DNA of 44,245 bases from Pyrobaculum sp. (GTDB taxonomy: Archaea > Thermoproteota > Thermoprotei > Thermoproteales > Thermoproteaceae), in assembly GCA_046293555.1 (NCBI GenBank), contig JBKBOT010000012.1, positions 1-44,245 on the forward strand, read 5' to 3'. This document shows positions 3,501-8,635 of the stretch, piece by piece (position 1 is the first letter of the stretch; each line of letters opens with the position of its first letter). Both the position numbers and the translations under genes were made by a program. Below the pieces are notes generated by a model. The model had not been told where the DNA came from. It saw only the letters and a program-made list of their open reading frames with translations, and searched no databases.

Positions 3501-4249
3501 CTCGGGAGTACATAGCTAAGAAGTTCGGCGAGGGGGAGTATAGGCCCAGGGCTTGGGGCGAGGGGGAGGGGGCACACGAGGCCATTAGGCCCACGAGGGC
3601 TGTAGATGTAGATGAGCTGAGGGGTCTTGTAAACGCCGGCGTGTTGCAACTAGCCATAAGGCCTACCGCCAGTCACTACAGGCTGTATGACCTCATATTC
3701 AGGCGGTTTATGGCCAGCCAGATGGCCCCCAGCCAGGTGGAGGTGGAGAGGTACTCCATCGAGATAGATGGACACGTGTCTCAGCTAGAGCGGGTGGTAG
3801 ACATAGAGAGGTGGGGGTTTCAACACATGTACACAGTAGCCGCCGTGGAGCAGCCCCTCCCCACCGGCGTGGTGGAGGTTACGGTAAAGAGGAGCCGCCT
3901 GGTGGAGGGAGTCTTGTCGCAAGCAGACGTCTTGGCGTTAATGCGCCAGAGGAAAATCGGCAGGCCTAGTACCTACGCCAGGATTTTAGAGACGTTGGCA
4001 AAGAGGTATTACGTCTTCGTGCCGAGGCAGAGCCGGGTTAAGCTCATGAAGCCCACCCAGCTTGGGAGAGATGTGTACCACTTCTTGGAGCAGAACTTCG
4101 GCAGTCTGGTAGACGAGGAGAGAACCAGGCTGATAGAACAGCACATGGATGAAATAGAGCGTGGGGGGGCTAAATACGGGGAGGTGCTCAACGAGCTGTT
4201 TGAAGAGTTTAGAAGAGAGGTTCTAGGCAAGATATATTCCGGGCCTTAG
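575..4249 (+). CDS. rgy: Reverse gyrase
   Basis: N-terminal Zn finger (CPNC...CEKC), Walker A APTGSGKT, DDVD, QGSGRASR, TOPRIM VESPTKA and ATDPDSEGE, and topoisomerase IA active site LITYHRTDS. The true start may be GTG 584. Confidence 0.98.
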   Translation: MRAVEVPLAVYLHSCPNCGGPITSTRLAAGLPCEKCLSAPAASLREVVKKLRRGGRLWGLAWVWEYFRRYEEFSYFFRRAVGFDMWGAQRLWARRFVRGKSFTIVAPTGSGKTTFVLTASLYTALGGGRVLLIFPTSALALQAYRRLAAYMERVGASVRVVAYHSMLTERERREALEAVERGDFDVLVVTTAFLPRRFELLSRHKFGLVVADDVDSILRATSRNIDRVLRLLGVSEEVLNTALRAIDLVKQLRRAEIVGDLKEVERLEGELEGLREELRKAVAELKLGVFIASGALAKARRTTRLLLFREILGFDIGGRAEGLRNVVDLYTEAGGDVVRQTVELLRRLGPGGIIYVQDRELGMGIVEAAGGSVEHFFKPRRGVLERFERGEIAALVGMASPRSALVRGIDLPHVVRYVVFVGVPKYRFRLRVEEFSTAAYLTLLYNLRPVLTGEWRYKADRLIGQLKRLAPYPQAVQEALRKAAGGVELSSFERHVAEVARSAVEFVRELLQREEVRKAIEGTEVDLAYIDGELYVLVPDVTTYLQGSGRASRLYAGGLSRGVSILLVDSWKVFHALRREVRLRFDEAEFRPLSEVDLEAVLREVDRDRKAIREILEGGAVAKGVDLMRTVLMVVESPTKARTIANFFGRPAMFIVGGVPVYEVSTGDAVLIITASLGHLYELPTSLERVEQREALRQRFGDFRYGEYDGGSYAVLIHDGAFVPVYNKIWRCRGGTYVDDLDKPPDCRPLDVLASIRDMAVEVDTVLLATDPDSEGEKIAFDLYLGLRPYVSDIRRVEFHEVTRRAILAALANPRSINYSLVKAQIVRRIEDRWLGFGLSKILQRHFGRSNLSAGRVQSPVLGWIVKTYEEARRQKAYRVTLQLDDVELTLTLPVEVAKALRARGKVAVRQVGRERRELNPPPPYTTDELLRDAVRRLGLSAELAMRLAQDLFEGGLITYHRTDSTRVSNVGIAIAREYIAKKFGEGEYRPRAWGEGEGAHEAIRPTRAVDVDELRGLVNAGVLQLAIRPTASHYRLYDLIFRRFMASQMAPSQVEVERYSIEIDGHVSQLERVVDIERWGFQHMYTVAAVEQPLPTGVVEVTVKRSRLVEGVLSQADVLALMRQRKIGRPSTYARILETLAKRYYVFVPRQSRVKLMKPTQLGRDVYHFLEQNFGSLVDEERTRLIEQHMDEIERGGAKYGEVLNELFEEFRREVLGKIYSGP

Positions 4250-7036
4250 CGGCAGGGATTGCCTCTTCTTGCCCCCCAGGTCTGGGGCGGCGTCGTCGTC
4301 GGCTTTATACACCTCCGGCGGCGCCCCCAGGGCTTTCTCTAGGTACCTGCCGTAGGCTCTCAACACCGCGGCCTCGTCGAAATTCTCCACCTGTCTCACC
4401 AAGGCCCTTATCTCGCCGCCTAGCGACCTCACGAGGTCTACCACCCTCTTGGCCGCCTGTGGGGGCGCCCCCGCCTCTATGACTGCCCTCACGTCTTCTT
4501 TAAGCCCCGCCTTAAGCCAGTGGAAATTGGGGTTTACGTATAGGACTACTTTCTTAACGCCCTGGCGGAAGGCGGGGATGTTTCTCACGTCTTCTACCAC
4601 CATGTCTACATATCTTTTTGCCAAAAGCGCGGCGGGGTCTGCCCTGAGTTTAGGCCAGGGCGCCCTTACGGCCAGCCCCCCGCCGCCCAGGAGGGACCAC
4701 AGCTCCTCGGCGAGGTGGGGCACTAGCGGCTCTAAAGCCACCACCCACGCCCTGGCGGCCTCCTGCGCCAGTCTGGAGGGCCTCTCCGCCATGGCTAGAT
4801 ACTGGTCGAGGAGGGACTTGGCGTTGTATAACACCTCTACTGCCGCCTGTCTGACCCGCGCCTTTTCGTACGCCTCCCTGGCTCTTTCTAGCAGCTGCGC
4901 CATCTCGGAGACAAGCCAGTGGTCAAGCCAGTCCTCTCTATCTACAGGCTGTGTGAACTTCTGCGCCAGCGTGTATATAGCCGCGAGCTGTTGGGCGTTC
5001 CTCCTGGCCTCGACATCTCTGAAGTCTAGGTCTTGTTCCACCTCTGCCGATATGGCTAGAGTAGCCCTGAGGGGGTCTGCGCCGTATATCTCCACCGCCT
5101 TGTCTAACGGCAAGACGTTACGTTTAGATTTAGACATCTTCTCCCCCTCTCTCAAAACCCAGCCGTTAGCCACTATGCTCCTTGGCCACTTTTCTCTGGG
5201 GAATATAGCCACGTGGTTAAATATAAAGAAGGTCAGGTGGTTGGGGATGAGGTCCTTGCCGGAGTTTCTAGAGTCTAGGGGGTACCAGTAGTCAAACTCT
5301 CTCCTTATCTCCTCCAAAGCCTCGGGGGACACGCCGGTTTTCTCCGCCACTTTAGCCAAATCGCCTTGACCCAAGAGGACGTAATCCCAAAATTCTTCAG
5401 TTAGCTGCTCCGGCCTTATACCAAACTGCCTGATCTTTTTTATCACAACATAGTAGGCCATGTATATAGTGGAGTCGCTAAGGCTCTCTATAACCCACCC
5501 CTGTCCCCACGGCAGCGGGGTGCCTAGCCCCCTGGTGCGGGCGCAAGCCCTCTTGTCTAGCCAATCCACCGTGGCCAGGAAGTGGGACCTGGCCTCCTCG
5601 GGCACTATGGACATCTCGCCCACGAGCTGCCTCGCCGACTGTTTCCACTGGCCGTCGCCGTAGTTTATAAACCACTGGTCCTCCAGCACCTTCACCACAA
5701 TCTCGGCGCCACACCTACAGTACACCGGCTTGTTCATCACGTCGTACACAACGGCCCCAAGGCCCGCCTCCACGAGCCACCTCTGTATAAACTCCCTAGC
5801 CTCCCTCACAGGCCGCCCGGCGAAATAGAGCCTAAAGGCCGCCCTCACCATAGATCTGGCGGGTTCCCCCAGGTGGAGGCCCACTCTCTCCGCCACGTCT
5901 AGCCTCATGACGCCTCTCGTATATTCGGCGGAGTAGACCTCTCTGGTTGCCTCCTCTAGCGCCGGGTCTGTCTGGCTGGAGATACCCATCCTCTCCACCA
6001 CCTCTCTCGCCGGGTGTTCCCCATAGCCCTCCACCACGATTAGGGGGATCAGCCTGACCGCCCCCAGGTCCCGCAGGGCGGCGTAGTCATATGGGGCGTG
6101 GGAGGGTACAGACATGACGAGACCTGTCCCCACCTTGGGGTCCACGAACCTCGCCCCGTATATGGGCACAGGCTCGCCGGTCACCGGGTTTAACACCTGC
6201 CTCCCCACGAGCTGCCTCCCCACGACTTTCTCGAGAATCCTAACCTCTGTCTGGAAGGAGAGGCTGAAGGCTGCCTCTCTGCTCACCACTGCCCTCACCC
6301 CATTTATCTCAGCCACCACGTATTCCCCCTCTGGGTTTATCCAGAGGTTTGTTACCCCCAGCACGGTCTCTGGCCTCAAGGTGGCCGTGGGGTAGGCCAG
6401 GTCGCCATCTCTAAAATATATCAACGTCCACTGTCCTATCTCGGGCTCCTTGTCGTCTTTTGTGTCATGTGCCCCCACGGGCATGGAGTGCCTTGGGCAC
6501 CACCCCACTGGATGTCTCCCCCTCACGATGAGGCCCCTTTTCCACAACTTCTCGAACTGCCACTGGATAAACCTCTGGTACTCCGGGTCTATTGTGGTGA
6601 ACTCGCGGCTCCAGTCTATCCCGAGGCCAAATCTCTCCATGGCCTCTCTAGACTGGCGGTGGAAATACCTGGCCAGGTGGAGGGGGTCGCCCATCTTTTT
6701 GACCTCCTCGGGGGGCACGCCGTATATCTCCATGTATTCCTCCATGATTGTCTTATCTCCAGCGGCTATAGCCTCCGCGATGGTCAAAATGGGGGTCCCC
6801 GTGTAGTGAAAAGCCATGGGGAACAACACGTTGCGGCCCATGTGCCTATGGAAGCGAGCCAACACGTCTGCAATTAGGTAAGTCCTCCCGTGGCCGATAT
6901 GGATGGCGCCGTTGGGGTATGGATATGCCGCAGTTATGAAGAACTTGGGGACGCCGGGGGCTGGCTCCGGCTCGTAGACACCCCTCCACCTCTCCTGCCA
7001 CTTTCTGGCAATAGAGTTGAAGAAAGAGGGGTCCAC
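4223..7036 (-). CDS. leuS: Leucyl-tRNA synthetase (archaeal type)
   Basis: YPYPNGAIHIGH, ATLRPET, GTGLVMSVPSHAPYD, GKDLIPNHL and KMSKS; convergent 27-bp overlap with rgy. Confidence 0.97.
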   Translation of the reverse strand: MDPSFFNSIARKWQERWRGVYEPEPAPGVPKFFITAAYPYPNGAIHIGHGRTYLIADVLARFHRHMGRNVLFPMAFHYTGTPILTIAEAIAAGDKTIMEEYMEIYGVPPEEVKKMGDPLHLARYFHRQSREAMERFGLGIDWSREFTTIDPEYQRFIQWQFEKLWKRGLIVRGRHPVGWCPRHSMPVGAHDTKDDKEPEIGQWTLIYFRDGDLAYPTATLRPETVLGVTNLWINPEGEYVVAEINGVRAVVSREAAFSLSFQTEVRILEKVVGRQLVGRQVLNPVTGEPVPIYGARFVDPKVGTGLVMSVPSHAPYDYAALRDLGAVRLIPLIVVEGYGEHPAREVVERMGISSQTDPALEEATREVYSAEYTRGVMRLDVAERVGLHLGEPARSMVRAAFRLYFAGRPVREAREFIQRWLVEAGLGAVVYDVMNKPVYCRCGAEIVVKVLEDQWFINYGDGQWKQSARQLVGEMSIVPEEARSHFLATVDWLDKRACARTRGLGTPLPWGQGWVIESLSDSTIYMAYYVVIKKIRQFGIRPEQLTEEFWDYVLLGQGDLAKVAEKTGVSPEALEEIRREFDYWYPLDSRNSGKDLIPNHLTFFIFNHVAIFPREKWPRSIVANGWVLREGEKMSKSKRNVLPLDKAVEIYGADPLRATLAISAEVEQDLDFRDVEARRNAQQLAAIYTLAQKFTQPVDREDWLDHWLVSEMAQLLERAREAYEKARVRQAAVEVLYNAKSLLDQYLAMAERPSRLAQEAARAWVVALEPLVPHLAEELWSLLGGGGLAVRAPWPKLRADPAALLAKRYVDMVVEDVRNIPAFRQGVKKVVLYVNPNFHWLKAGLKEDVRAVIEAGAPPQAAKRVVDLVRSLGGEIRALVRQVENFDEAAVLRAYGRYLEKALGAPPEVYKADDDAAPDLGGKKRQSLPLRPGIYLA

Positions 7037-7054: not shown

Positions 7055-7543
7055 TTATATATTCTTTTGGTAGATGTATATCTTCAGCCTGGGGTTTTTA
7101 GCCACAAGAGTTAGCCCAGGTATTTCCCACATGTAGGACACCACGTAGGCAGAAGGCTTGAGCTCTCTGGCGAGCTTTTCCGCAAGCCTTATGTTTACAG
7201 AAGGCCACTGGAAGACGTAAACCACGTCTGCGTCCGAGAGGTCTACTTTAAACATGTCTCTTAGCAATACTACACATCTACATCTCAGCCGACATATTGC
7301 CCACCTGAGGGGATCTATCTCGACGCCTATAGGCACAGCCCCCATGGACCTGGCTAAAGTTAACACCACGCCGTATCCACAGCCCAGGTCGTAAACCCTC
7401 TTTCCCGCCACTCCGATCTGTCTGAAGGCCCAGGCGGCGGCCTCCTTCCTAGAGGTGCTATAGGCGGCGCCCCGCCTCGCCAGGTAGGGCCAGAGGAGGT
7501 GGGCGATGGCCGCCGCGGCGAGGAGGGCCACCACTTCTATCAT
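7055..7543 (-). CDS. Membrane-anchored class I SAM methyltransferase, aKMT/FAM173-like (putative protein lysine methyltransferase)
   Basis: N-terminal hydrophobic helix, VYDLGCGYG, GVEID, DMFKVDLSDADVVYVF and ELKPSAYVVSY. Confidence 0.8.
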   Translation of the reverse strand: MIEVVALLAAAAIAHLLWPYLARRGAAYSTSRKEAAAWAFRQIGVAGKRVYDLGCGYGVVLTLARSMGAVPIGVEIDPLRWAICRLRCRCVVLLRDMFKVDLSDADVVYVFQWPSVNIRLAEKLARELKPSAYVVSYMWEIPGLTLVAKNPRLKIYIYQKNI

Positions 7544-7881
7544 CTCCTCTCTGCCACCAGCCCCACGTCTGTCACGCCAGTTATTACAACCACGTCGCCA
7601 GGCCCGCAGCCCTCACATATCGCCCGCCAGTATACGCCCTCTATCTTCAACATGGCCCACACGCCGTCTGTCTCTACCACCACGCCTCTCTTGCCTAAAA
7701 TCTCTACTACAGACTTACGCCTCATGGCTTTAACCCCAGCGGCTAGGGCGAGGACATATATGGCTAAAAGCGAGCCGCCAATGGGGTAGCCCAGCCAGGG
7801 CGGCATGTACCCCAACGCCGTTAGTATTACCAACAGGCCCCCCAGGAGCCCCAGGGCTGAGGGAGACACGACACGTACCAC
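7540..7881 (-). CDS. NfeD-like short membrane protein (C-terminal OB fold)
   Basis: Two TM helices followed by GKRGVVVE...LKIEGVYWRA...GDVVVITGV, the typical NfeD C-terminal pattern. Confidence 0.8.
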   Translation of the reverse strand: MVRVVSPSALGLLGGLLVILTALGYMPPWLGYPIGGSLLAIYVLALAAGVKAMRRKSVVEILGKRGVVVETDGVWAMLKIEGVYWRAICEGCGPGDVVVITGVTDVGLVAERR

Positions 7882-7889
7882 ATATAAAA

Positions 7890-7963
7890 AGATGTATGCC
7901 CCTTGGAGGAGGCGCCCTCATAGACGCCCATACGGCGGCTCGGCGCCCCACGCCGGGGGGCCA
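7890..7963 (-). ncRNA. H/ACA box pseudouridylation guide sRNA, predicted target 16S rRNA
   Basis: GCCCC/GGGGC lower stem, pocket CCGGCGU/CUCCAA, upper stem GGGGCGCC/GGCGCCUC, K-turn (CCGA/UAUGAG), ACA about 13-14 nt below the pocket top, then a U-run. Confidence 0.85.
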
Positions 7964-7966
7964 TGA

Positions 7967-8635
7967 TTATATTTTGTAATAATAAAAATGTCTTCTCCTG
8001 CCTCTAAAAACCAACGCCGTGAGGGCGCCGGCGATAAAGCCGCCTATGTGGGCGAAGTAGGCCACGCCGGAGGGCTGCACCGTGAGGAGCTCCGCCACGC
8101 CGTAATATAGCTGGAAGAGAAACCAGAACCCTATGTAGGCCCAGGCGGGGATCTCTATGATGGTAATTATGAAGAAGAAGACCAACGTCTGGATCCGGGC
8201 GCGTGGGAATAACACCAGGTATGCGCCCAAGACGCCGCTAATGGCGCCAGAGGCCCCCAGCGCCGGCGTGAGCCACATCTCTCTAGCCGCCGGCTGGGCC
8301 GATATGGACAGTAGGTGGGCAAACGCCGCGGCGATGCCCCACGTGAGGTATAGGGCTAGAAACCTCAGGTGGCCGTAGCGGTCTTCCACATTGTCGCCAA
8401 ATACCCATAGGTATATCATGTTGCCCACCAGGTGTATCACGCCGCCGTGGAGAAACATGTGGGTTAGCCAGCGGTATGTCTCAATAAAGGCTAGGGCGGG
8501 GATGAAGGCGTACCTCAAGGCGATCTGCGGGGCGACCAGCTGGTATATAAACACGGCGATGTTTATAAAGACGAGGCTCTTGGTGACAATGGGGAAACTC
8601 CAGGTGGGGTTTATGTCGCGGAGGGGGATGGCCAC
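7967..8635 (-). CDS. Rhomboid family intramembrane serine protease
   Basis: THMFLHGG, HLVGNM, FGDNVED, GASG (catalytic Ser) and AHIGGF (catalytic His). Confidence 0.96.
   Translation of the reverse strand: MAIPLRDINPTWSFPIVTKSLVFINIAVFIYQLVAPQIALRYAFIPALAFIETYRWLTHMFLHGGVIHLVGNMIYLWVFGDNVEDRYGHLRFLALYLTWGIAAAFAHLLSISAQPAAREMWLTPALGASGAISGVLGAYLVLFPRARIQTLVFFFIITIIEIPAWAYIGFWFLFQLYYGVAELLTVQPSGVAYFAHIGGFIAGALTALVFRGRRRHFYYYKI

Follow-up and report, generated by a model that had tools for sequence, protein, structure and literature searches.

An sR201-family box H/ACA guide sRNA in Pyrobaculum and its predicted target in the helix-31 loop of 16S rRNA

Introduction

Does the short stretch between a rhomboid protease gene and an NfeD-like gene on a Pyrobaculum contig encode a guide RNA and, if so, which uridine does it direct to modification? 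The window analysed here, a stretch of 44,245 nucleotides, carries at this locus a hairpin that an initial annotation, made from the letters alone, read as a hidden H/ACA guide for the uridine in the loop of 16S helix 31. Hypermodification of this nucleotide is conserved from crenarchaea to humans. It is stacked against the P-site tRNA's anticodon, and in the Sulfolobus solfataricus ribosome the tip of helix 31 carries m1acp3-pseudouridine 930 (PMC11698992, in part). Thermococcus kodakarensis has m1-pseudouridine in helix 31 (PMC11551388, in part), and Pyrococcus abyssi is without the acp3 group (PMC11698992, in part). Little is known of helix-31 modification across Archaea, according to a 2024 paper (PMC11551388, in part).

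Results

Identity and layout of the gene

An Rfam scan of the whole 44-kb window at the gathering threshold returned a single match, RF02801 PyrR201 (E 4e-10), a family that Rfam describes as "Pyrobaculum sRNA 201", of type box H/ACA. Since the match is at gathering level, the feature is already catalogued, as the initial annotation had thought possible; the word hidden fits the raw sequence, but not a routine Rfam scan, which finds the gene. The segment is a canonical single-hairpin box H/ACA guide, orthologous to sR201; Pyrobaculum has two canonical guide sRNAs of the box H/ACA type, and sR201 is one of them. Pyrobaculum sR201 was reportedly described by Bernick et al. in 2012 (RNA 18:402). 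It was recognised in P. aerophilum before 2012 (PMC4652768, in part). The elements of the locus are the following.

7981-7988, minus strand: TATA-like A/T box TTTTTATT, about 24 nt upstream of the 5' G of the sRNA, inside the 3' end of the rhomboid ORF
7967-8635, minus strand: rhomboid protease gene, upstream neighbour (PF01694, 125.6 bits)
7893-7961, minus strand: sR201 box H/ACA guide sRNA, whole gene (RF02801, 65.7 bits against a gathering threshold of 49; model positions 1-68 of 68)
7957-7961, minus strand: lower stem (helix 1), 5' strand GCCCC
7950-7956, minus strand: 5' guide strand of the pocket, CCGGCGU, predicted to pair with 16S ACGCCGG (target scan and orthologue alignment)
7942-7949, minus strand: upper stem (helix 2), 5' strand GGGGCGCC
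7940-7941, minus strand: GA of the K-turn, non-bulged strand, invariant in 23/23 orthologues
7923-7939, minus strand: apical stem-loop (helix 3), comprising the C-stem of the K-turn and the loop
7918-7922, minus strand: bulged strand of the K-turn, a 3-nt bulge UAU followed by GA; U-G-A invariant in 23/23 orthologues
7909-7916, minus strand: upper stem (helix 2), 3' strand GGCGCCUC
7903-7908, minus strand: 3' guide strand of the pocket, CUCCAA, predicted to pair with 16S UUGGAG (target scan and orthologue alignment)
7898-7902, minus strand: lower stem (helix 1), 3' strand GGGGC
7893-7895, minus strand: ACA box, after an AU spacer, starting 14 nt past the last base of the upper stem
7884-7892, minus strand: T-rich tract UCUUUUUAU, directly 3' of the ACA; putative terminator by its sequence
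7540-7881, minus strand: NfeD-like small membrane protein gene, downstream neighbour (PF01957, 23.4 bits, below the cut-off of 29.1)

The minus-strand letters from 7963 to 7884 read exactly as first transcribed, and the lower stem, pocket, upper stem, K-turn and ACA box named there are all present, with helices that covary in 23 orthologues. A single G separates the GA of the K-turn (to 7918) from the 3' strand of the upper stem (from 7916) on the minus strand. The ACA (ANA) box of archaeal H/ACA guides is expected at the 3' end, some 14-16 nt from the pocket's top, and the spacing of 14 nt in sR201 falls within this range. The letters after the ACA are UCUUUUU on the minus strand; the tract at 7884-7892 is likely an archaeal terminator, judging from its composition, and its sequence is not kept in relatives.

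The rhomboid stop codon lies at 7969-7967, and the 3' end of this ORF contains the promoter-like box. An AT-rich tract had been noted there at about 25 nt upstream, which agrees with the box at 7988-7981, about 24 nt before the 5' G. In 12/12 aligned genus copies, an A/T-rich TATA-like box precedes the first G by about 24-27 nt, and the box of the window may be the promoter of the sRNA. The NfeD-like ORF starts 12 nt after the ACA. The rhomboid neighbour is thus as initially annotated, whereas the assignment of the NfeD gene reaches only a score below the cut-off.

In a permissive scan of 451 bases around the locus, the sister families PyrR207, PyrR208 and PyrR209 gave weak, sub-threshold matches. 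These families and sR201 have the K-turn hairpin core in common.

Distribution and synteny

Of the 29 genomes that the taxonomic family comprises here, 25 have a match to RF02801 above the cut-off, one each, and they belong to two genera: in the genome to which the window belongs, in 16 of the 17 other genomes of the genus, and in 8 of the 9 genomes of the second genus. The single genus genome without a match is 61% complete. The two genomes from the family's third genus, eight from other genera within the order and 14 control genomes gave no match, and a search at E <= 10 in five genomes of other genera of the order also returned none. The match in one relative, G012, is letter-identical to Pae_sR201, the P. 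aerophilum sequence given in the supplement of PMC4652768, and the genome of the window is thereby assigned to that genus. The stretch itself was matched in one DNA sequencing run, from a hot-spring metagenome, and in no RNA run.

Synteny was analysed by tblastn on the flanks in the 11 genus relatives whose flanking DNA was fetched, and the sR201 locus is largely syntenic among them. An NfeD-like homologue lies directly downstream of sR201 in nine of these relatives and a methyltransferase gene in ten, and a rhomboid gene is located within 1.5 kb upstream (<=1.5 kb) in seven. For the structural comparison below, 23 of the 25 RF02801 matches were aligned, two rows having been dropped as identical to others that were kept.

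The helix-31 loop as target

The host assembly of 145 contigs yielded no 16S, no 23S and no copy of the target 16-mer, and the target was therefore read from the rRNA of relatives. Every U in the 16S and 23S rRNAs of two genus relatives was scanned for contiguous pairing with the two strands of the pocket, with 1, 2 or 3 unpaired target nucleotides and without mismatches or bulges. The best site in both relatives is U932 of the 16S rRNA (numbering of the 1500-nt, intron-less 16S of these relatives), which lies in the context GGAG-U-CAACGCC at the tip of the helix-31 loop and is the equivalent of Sulfolobus U930 and yeast U1191. It offers 6+7 Watson-Crick pairs with three unpaired nucleotides, and the runners-up reach 7-8 pairs. 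The perfect 6+7 pairing around the helix-31 U that had been proposed in the initial annotation was hence recovered in the rRNA of relatives, and none of 2000 shuffled rRNAs equals its 13 Watson-Crick pairs (the maximum is 12, reached once). With G-U pairs allowed, 13 pairs occur in 3/500 shuffled rRNAs and in 2/500 shuffled guides.

The duplex energies are -12.4 kcal/mol for the 5' guide and -6.3 kcal/mol for the 3' guide, and the pairing conforms to the rule that asks for a minimum of 8 pairs in total, with no fewer than 3 on each flank of the U (PMC7991803, in part). Across both strands of the host genome (1.75 Mb, hence 3.5 Mb scanned), no site with 13 pairs was found even with G-U allowed; the maximum is 12, and 274 sites have at least 10 pairs. 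The only match of the invariant nine-letter guide core in the real rRNAs is the helix-31 site, a result to be read together with the 74 of 2000 shuffles that also reach nine. The target string quoted in the initial annotation, a 16-mer, is present exactly once in the 16S loci of each of 12/12 relatives and once in 19 of the 29 family genomes, including all the single-contig ones (0 in the reversed-pattern control). By this pairing, the helix-31 U is by far the best site for sR201 in the 16S and 23S rRNAs of the relatives.

The letters of the pocket are nearly fixed among the 23 orthologues. The 5' strand is GGCGU in 22 of them and GGUGU, still pairing by wobble, in one; the 3' strand is CUCC in all, followed in fifth place by a purine in 23/23, either A or G, each able to pair with U. 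It is precisely the letters unchanged in both genera that pair with the helix-31 loop.

A search of the literature found no statement of the target of sR201, with Bernick et al. 2012 and the main target table of PMC4652768 outside its coverage. Table S2 of PMC4652768 lists sites in its own 16S numbering, for which no single offset places a U of the G012 16S at six or more of the seven listed positions. The entry "S1724" is accordingly not placeable on the G012 16S.

These data also bear on whether the helix-31 U is the main or only substrate. sR201 could be a promiscuous guide like the sR435 of Sulfolobus islandicus, which has eight sites of 8-11 pairs with bulges and mismatches, among them 16S-U930 and tRNA-Pro(CGG)-U38 (PMC11077068, in part), or its physiological target could be one of the sites listed as alternatives for Pae201. 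Table S2 indeed gives tRNA-Pro(CGG) U38 and a second 16S site for Pae201 (PMC4652768, in part), and the tRNA-Pro(CGG) anticodon loop of the host itself can form 3+4 pairs around U38. We nevertheless regard this alternative as unlikely: other rRNA sites in the relatives have at most 8 contiguous pairs, compared with 13 at helix 31, the best tRNA site has 8 and the tRNA-Pro site 7, three of them wobble, and the conserved guide letters coincide with the helix-31 pairing. The tRNA figures come from 35 tRNAs predicted by ARAGORN, which handles these intron-bearing genes poorly, and weak secondary sites would escape a scan that allows no mismatches or bulges.

Protein machinery and the Nep1 context

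The genome to which the window belongs (96% complete) encodes Cbf5 (398.5 bits), Nop10 (81.4 bits) and L7Ae-family proteins (best 98.3 bits); for Gar1, a 76-aa ORF gave a weak match, whose 20.5 bits fall short of the cut-off. The methyltransferase Nep1/EMG1, invoked from the outset as acting on the same nucleotide, is encoded as well (175.3 bits). Nep1 was detected in 12 of the 13 genus genomes first sampled and in 8/8 genomes of other genera. The enzyme methylates only a pseudouridine that precedes CAAC (PMC2853112, in part), and U932 stands directly before CAACGCC, in the Nep1 recognition context. Matching contexts are GAU-psi-CAACGCC in Methanocaldococcus jannaschii (position 914), GAC-psi-CAACACG in human (1248) and that of yeast 1191 (PMC2853112, in part).

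A search for PF04034, the catalytic domain of Tsr3, gave no match in the genome to which the window belongs, in any of the 17 other genomes of the genus or in any of nine genomes of the sister genus. The domain is present in 2/2 genomes from the family's third genus, and in 3/3 and 2/2 genomes of two other genera of the order. Many of the Tsr3-negative genomes of the genus and sister genus are single-contig assemblies.

Geometry of the unpaired target

In the canonical arrangement, the unpaired target consists of the U and one 3' nucleotide only (PMC7991803, in part). sR201 departs from this spacer, as initially annotated: in the best pairing, U, C and A are all unpaired. An alternative register has two unpaired nucleotides and the second A bulged; a two-nucleotide register without the bulge retains only 6+1 pairs. 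The three-nucleotide arrangement is common to 23/23 orthologues; it is therefore fixed in the whole family and no oddity of the window copy.

Such a geometry raises the question of whether the RNP isomerises the U at all. The three-nucleotide spacer might misplace the U, so that the sR201 RNP would bind the helix-31 loop as a folding chaperone or placeholder and any pseudouridine there would be made by another enzyme; a "3nt target spacer" is classed among the pairing anomalies (PMC4652768, in part), and for an H/ACA RNP that does not modify, snR30 offers a precedent (PMC7991803, in part). This scenario appears highly unlikely, however. Archaeal Cbf5 tolerates atypical arrangements of guide and target (PMC7075261, in part), sR435, although it pairs weakly close to the equivalent U930, still modifies this U in vitro (PMC11077068, in part), and Nep1, which needs pseudouridine at this position (PMC2853112, in part), is kept in the genus at the frequency given above. 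The register with two unpaired nucleotides and one bulged A is, moreover, equally possible.

The window copy has peculiarities of its own. Its RF02801 score (65.7 bits) is the lowest of the genus, and its upper stem has a C-G pair where most copies have U-A. It also contains one extra C, giving CC before GGCGU where relatives have U or A, and this insertion extends the 5' duplex from six pairs, one of them wobble, to seven Watson-Crick pairs, with a change in energy from -8.4 to -12.4 kcal/mol.

Conservation of the fold

The proposed helices were compared with shuffled alignments of the 23 orthologues. Paired cells amount to 90.2%, against 81.6 +/- 1.2 in the shuffles, none of which (0/500) reaches this value; 10 of the 19 pairs are changed on both sides, a count reached by 2/500 shuffles; and the covariation score is 0.313, against 0.157 in the shuffles (0/500 reach 0.313). 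The initial annotation had made its proposal depend on stems that are conserved in relatives, and these figures bear it out. In a slid control, in which the partners were moved by 1-3 columns, 46-61% of the cells are paired. Within the genus alone (12 copies), 89.5% of the cells are paired and covariation is not above that of the shuffles, since these copies are too alike.

Compensatory changes occur in all three helices. In the lower stem, 100% of the cells are paired and two of the five pairs change from C-G to U-A in the second genus. In the upper stem, both partners differ in four of the eight pairs, G-C being replaced by A-U or by C-G, for instance; the same holds for four of the six pairs of the apical stem (for example, C-G to G-C), and the letters of the apical loop vary freely. 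By contrast, the GA and U-GA elements of the K-turn are invariant (23/23), with the flanking G-C closing pair kept in 22/23, and from these letters the K-turn would be the binding site of L7Ae. The 3' box reads ACA in 21 of the 23 orthologues; the two exceptions have AUA and UCA.

The predicted fold of the single sequence recovers the sR201 stems, with a folding energy of z = -1.25. The hairpin energy by itself is no evidence, as such a value is unremarkable for G+C-rich DNA; what places sR201 above chance is the covariance-model match together with the covariation in 23 orthologues. That the locus holds no RNA gene, the hairpin being a G+C-rich intergenic terminator of the rhomboid gene, a leader of the NfeD-like gene or part of a small ORF, is scarcely credible. 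In favour of it, 17/200 shuffles fold equally well, a T-tract follows the hairpin and the region is overlapped by ORFs of 73 and 53 aa; against it, the RF02801 match spans the full model, compensatory changes are seen in each of the three helices, the K-turn does not vary and the ACA hardly does, the upstream A/T box is conserved, and Table S2 marks Pae201 as expressed, conserved and promoter-bearing (PMC4652768, in part). A protein-coding reading of the locus was rejected, as neither of the two ORFs over the sRNA has a Pfam match.

Discussion

We conclude, with a probability of about 0.8, that window positions 7893-7961 encode an sR201 orthologue that guides pseudouridylation of the helix-31 U through a Cbf5 RNP, with Nep1 acting next. 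What the data show is that the RNA belongs to the family, that its fold is conserved and its guide letters are fixed, that one complementary site stands out, and that the genes for the RNP and Nep1 are present. Transcription in this organism and the subsequent steps may be pictured as follows. Transcription of sR201 would start from a TATA-like promoter of its own, within the final part of the rhomboid gene, and terminate at the T-tract, and the RNA would fold into a 5-bp lower stem, the pocket, an 8-bp upper stem followed by the K-turn with its tandem G.A pairs, and the apical stem. L7Ae would bind the K-turn and Cbf5 the lower stem together with the ACA, with Nop10 and Gar1 completing the particle. 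Both strands of the pocket would then clamp the helix-31 loop of the pre-16S rRNA on either side of U932, and Cbf5 would isomerise the helix-31 U to pseudouridine, which Nep1 would most likely methylate at N1. Since no Tsr3 was found in the clade, the end product is probably m1-pseudouridine without acp3, which should react with CMC, unlike m1acp3-pseudouridine (PMC11077068).

A broader reading, to which we give even odds, extends this pathway to the Pyrobaculum clade together with the sister genus. In both, a single canonical H/ACA RNA, itself conserved, would be dedicated to the helix-31 U. Its geometry, non-canonical through either three unpaired nucleotides or a bulged A, would be fixed and have been kept while the three stems drifted; the pathway would end at m1-pseudouridine as in Thermococcales, unlike in Sulfolobus, and the 5' duplex would have been strengthened to seven pairs in the window species by a one-base insertion.

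The object is a known, catalogued guide RNA, and the practical outcome is an ordinary gene of this kind, annotated by a routine Rfam search. Slightly beyond the catalogue entry are the fixed three-nucleotide spacer geometry and the failure to find Tsr3 in the clade. If the service of the helix-31 U by sR201 is confirmed, the first step of the pathway would be filled in for the Thermoproteaceae, and sR201 would provide a natural example of an H/ACA guide that works with a three-nucleotide spacer.

Comparison with known guides

The window copy resembles the Pyrobaculum sR201 of the catalogue in its match to the full model, its architecture, the core guide letters GGCGU and CUCC, and its genomic neighbourhood. 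It differs in the traits described above, namely the lowest score in the genus, the extra C, the longer 5' duplex and the C-G pair that replaces U-A in the upper stem. The atypical Pyrobaculum guides sR203-sR210 share the genus and the K-turn hairpin core with sR201, but are without the lower stem and often without the ACA box (PMC4652768, in part), both of which are present in sR201.

For sR201, the closest functional precedent in Archaea is sR435 of S. islandicus. This classic H/ACA RNA modifies 16S-U930 in vitro together with seven other sites, including tRNA-Pro(CGG)-U38 (PMC11077068, in part). Both are single-hairpin classic crenarchaeal H/ACA RNAs that address, in sR201 by prediction, the equivalent 16S U, with irregular pairing next to the target. 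U38 of tRNA-Pro(CGG), a target of sR435, is also listed as an alternative target of Pae201, and for this reason sR201 and sR435 may be functional equivalents. The two differ in that sR435 has eight sites with 8-11 pairs each, whereas sR201 has one outstanding site of 13 pairs; Sulfolobus, in addition, has Tsr3 and m1acp3-pseudouridine, while Tsr3 was not found in the clade of the window.

In eukaryotes, the corresponding guides are H/ACA snoRNAs of two hairpins that carry an H box as well as an ACA box and lack a K-turn or L7Ae site, and the human counterpart of yeast snR35 is SNORA13/ACA13. As is predicted for sR201, snR35 is a box H/ACA guide for the helix-31 loop U, which is then N1-methylated by Nep1/Emg1 (PMC2853112 and PMC11077068, both in part). 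The description of the locus as a local counterpart of snR35 is supported as a functional analogy, in that the same rRNA position would be addressed, rather than as a statement on sequence homology. The product of these eukaryotic guides is further modified by Tsr3, an enzyme not found in the sR201 clade, in which m1-pseudouridine itself would probably be the final form.

Breadth of the sR201 family

The box H/ACA guide sR201 (window 7893-7961, minus strand) belongs to Rfam model RF02801 (PyrR201). Matches above the cut-off (gathering score 49) were found in eight of the nine genomes of the sister genus (L038-L045), with scores of 51.6-67.5 bits. Because these copies pass the cut-off and carry compensatory changes in their stems, with guide letters unchanged, the family is wider than the 'Pyrobaculum' of its Rfam name. 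Three relatives also hold a second match that falls below the cut-off (31.9-36.1 bits):

G004:C1:90331-90406, weak second RF02801 match
G003:C74:6991-7060, weak second RF02801 match
G022:C1:1427206-1427271, weak second RF02801 match

These probably represent a different H/ACA or H/ACA-like family, such as sR202.

Genomic surroundings

The NfeD-like ORF directly downstream of sR201 is listed with a GTG start just 12 nt past the ACA box (region 7879-7892, minus strand). The T/A-rich tract between ACA and GTG could play a double role, terminating the sRNA and supplying a TATA box should translation begin at a later codon than the listed GTG. The NfeD homology of relatives begins ~35-40 nt past the sRNA. 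The window contains a further long reading frame:

4223-7036, minus strand, ORF of 937 aa; HIGH-like and KMSKS motifs can be seen in the translated product

Judged by these motifs, it looks like a putative class I aminoacyl-tRNA synthetase.

Predicted modification state of the helix-31 uridine

The G000 assembly, that of the organism itself (145 contigs, 96% complete), contains no 16S or 23S rRNA gene, and guide-target work on any of its sRNAs must therefore rely on relatives. The enzymes expected to act on the predicted sR201 target, the helix-31 U of 16S rRNA, were surveyed across whole genomes (G000-G036), a scope that carries no window coordinates. The catalytic domain of Tsr3 (PF04034), responsible for the acp3 step, was not found in the organism's own genome, in the 17 other genomes of the genus (0/17) or in the nine of the sister genus (0/9). 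Both genomes of the family's third genus carry it (2/2), as do two further genera within the order. Nep1, the N1-methylation enzyme, is retained almost everywhere among the genomes surveyed. Together with the failure to find the Tsr3 domain in the organism's own genus and the sister genus, this suggests that in these two genera the final state of this uridine is m1-pseudouridine, not m1acp3-pseudouridine.

tRNA-Pro(CGG) as a candidate second target

A tRNA at G000:C1:19288-19380 (complement) has the anticodon-loop letters UUCGGGU; it is apparently an intron-containing tRNA-Pro(CGG) misread by ARAGORN. Around U38 of this tRNA, the sR201 pocket could form 3+4 pairs, three of which are wobble pairs. 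The same position is listed in Table S2 of PMC4652768 as an alternative target of Pae201, the P. aerophilum sR201, and is a proven target (PMC11077068) of sR435, the classic H/ACA guide of Sulfolobus islandicus.
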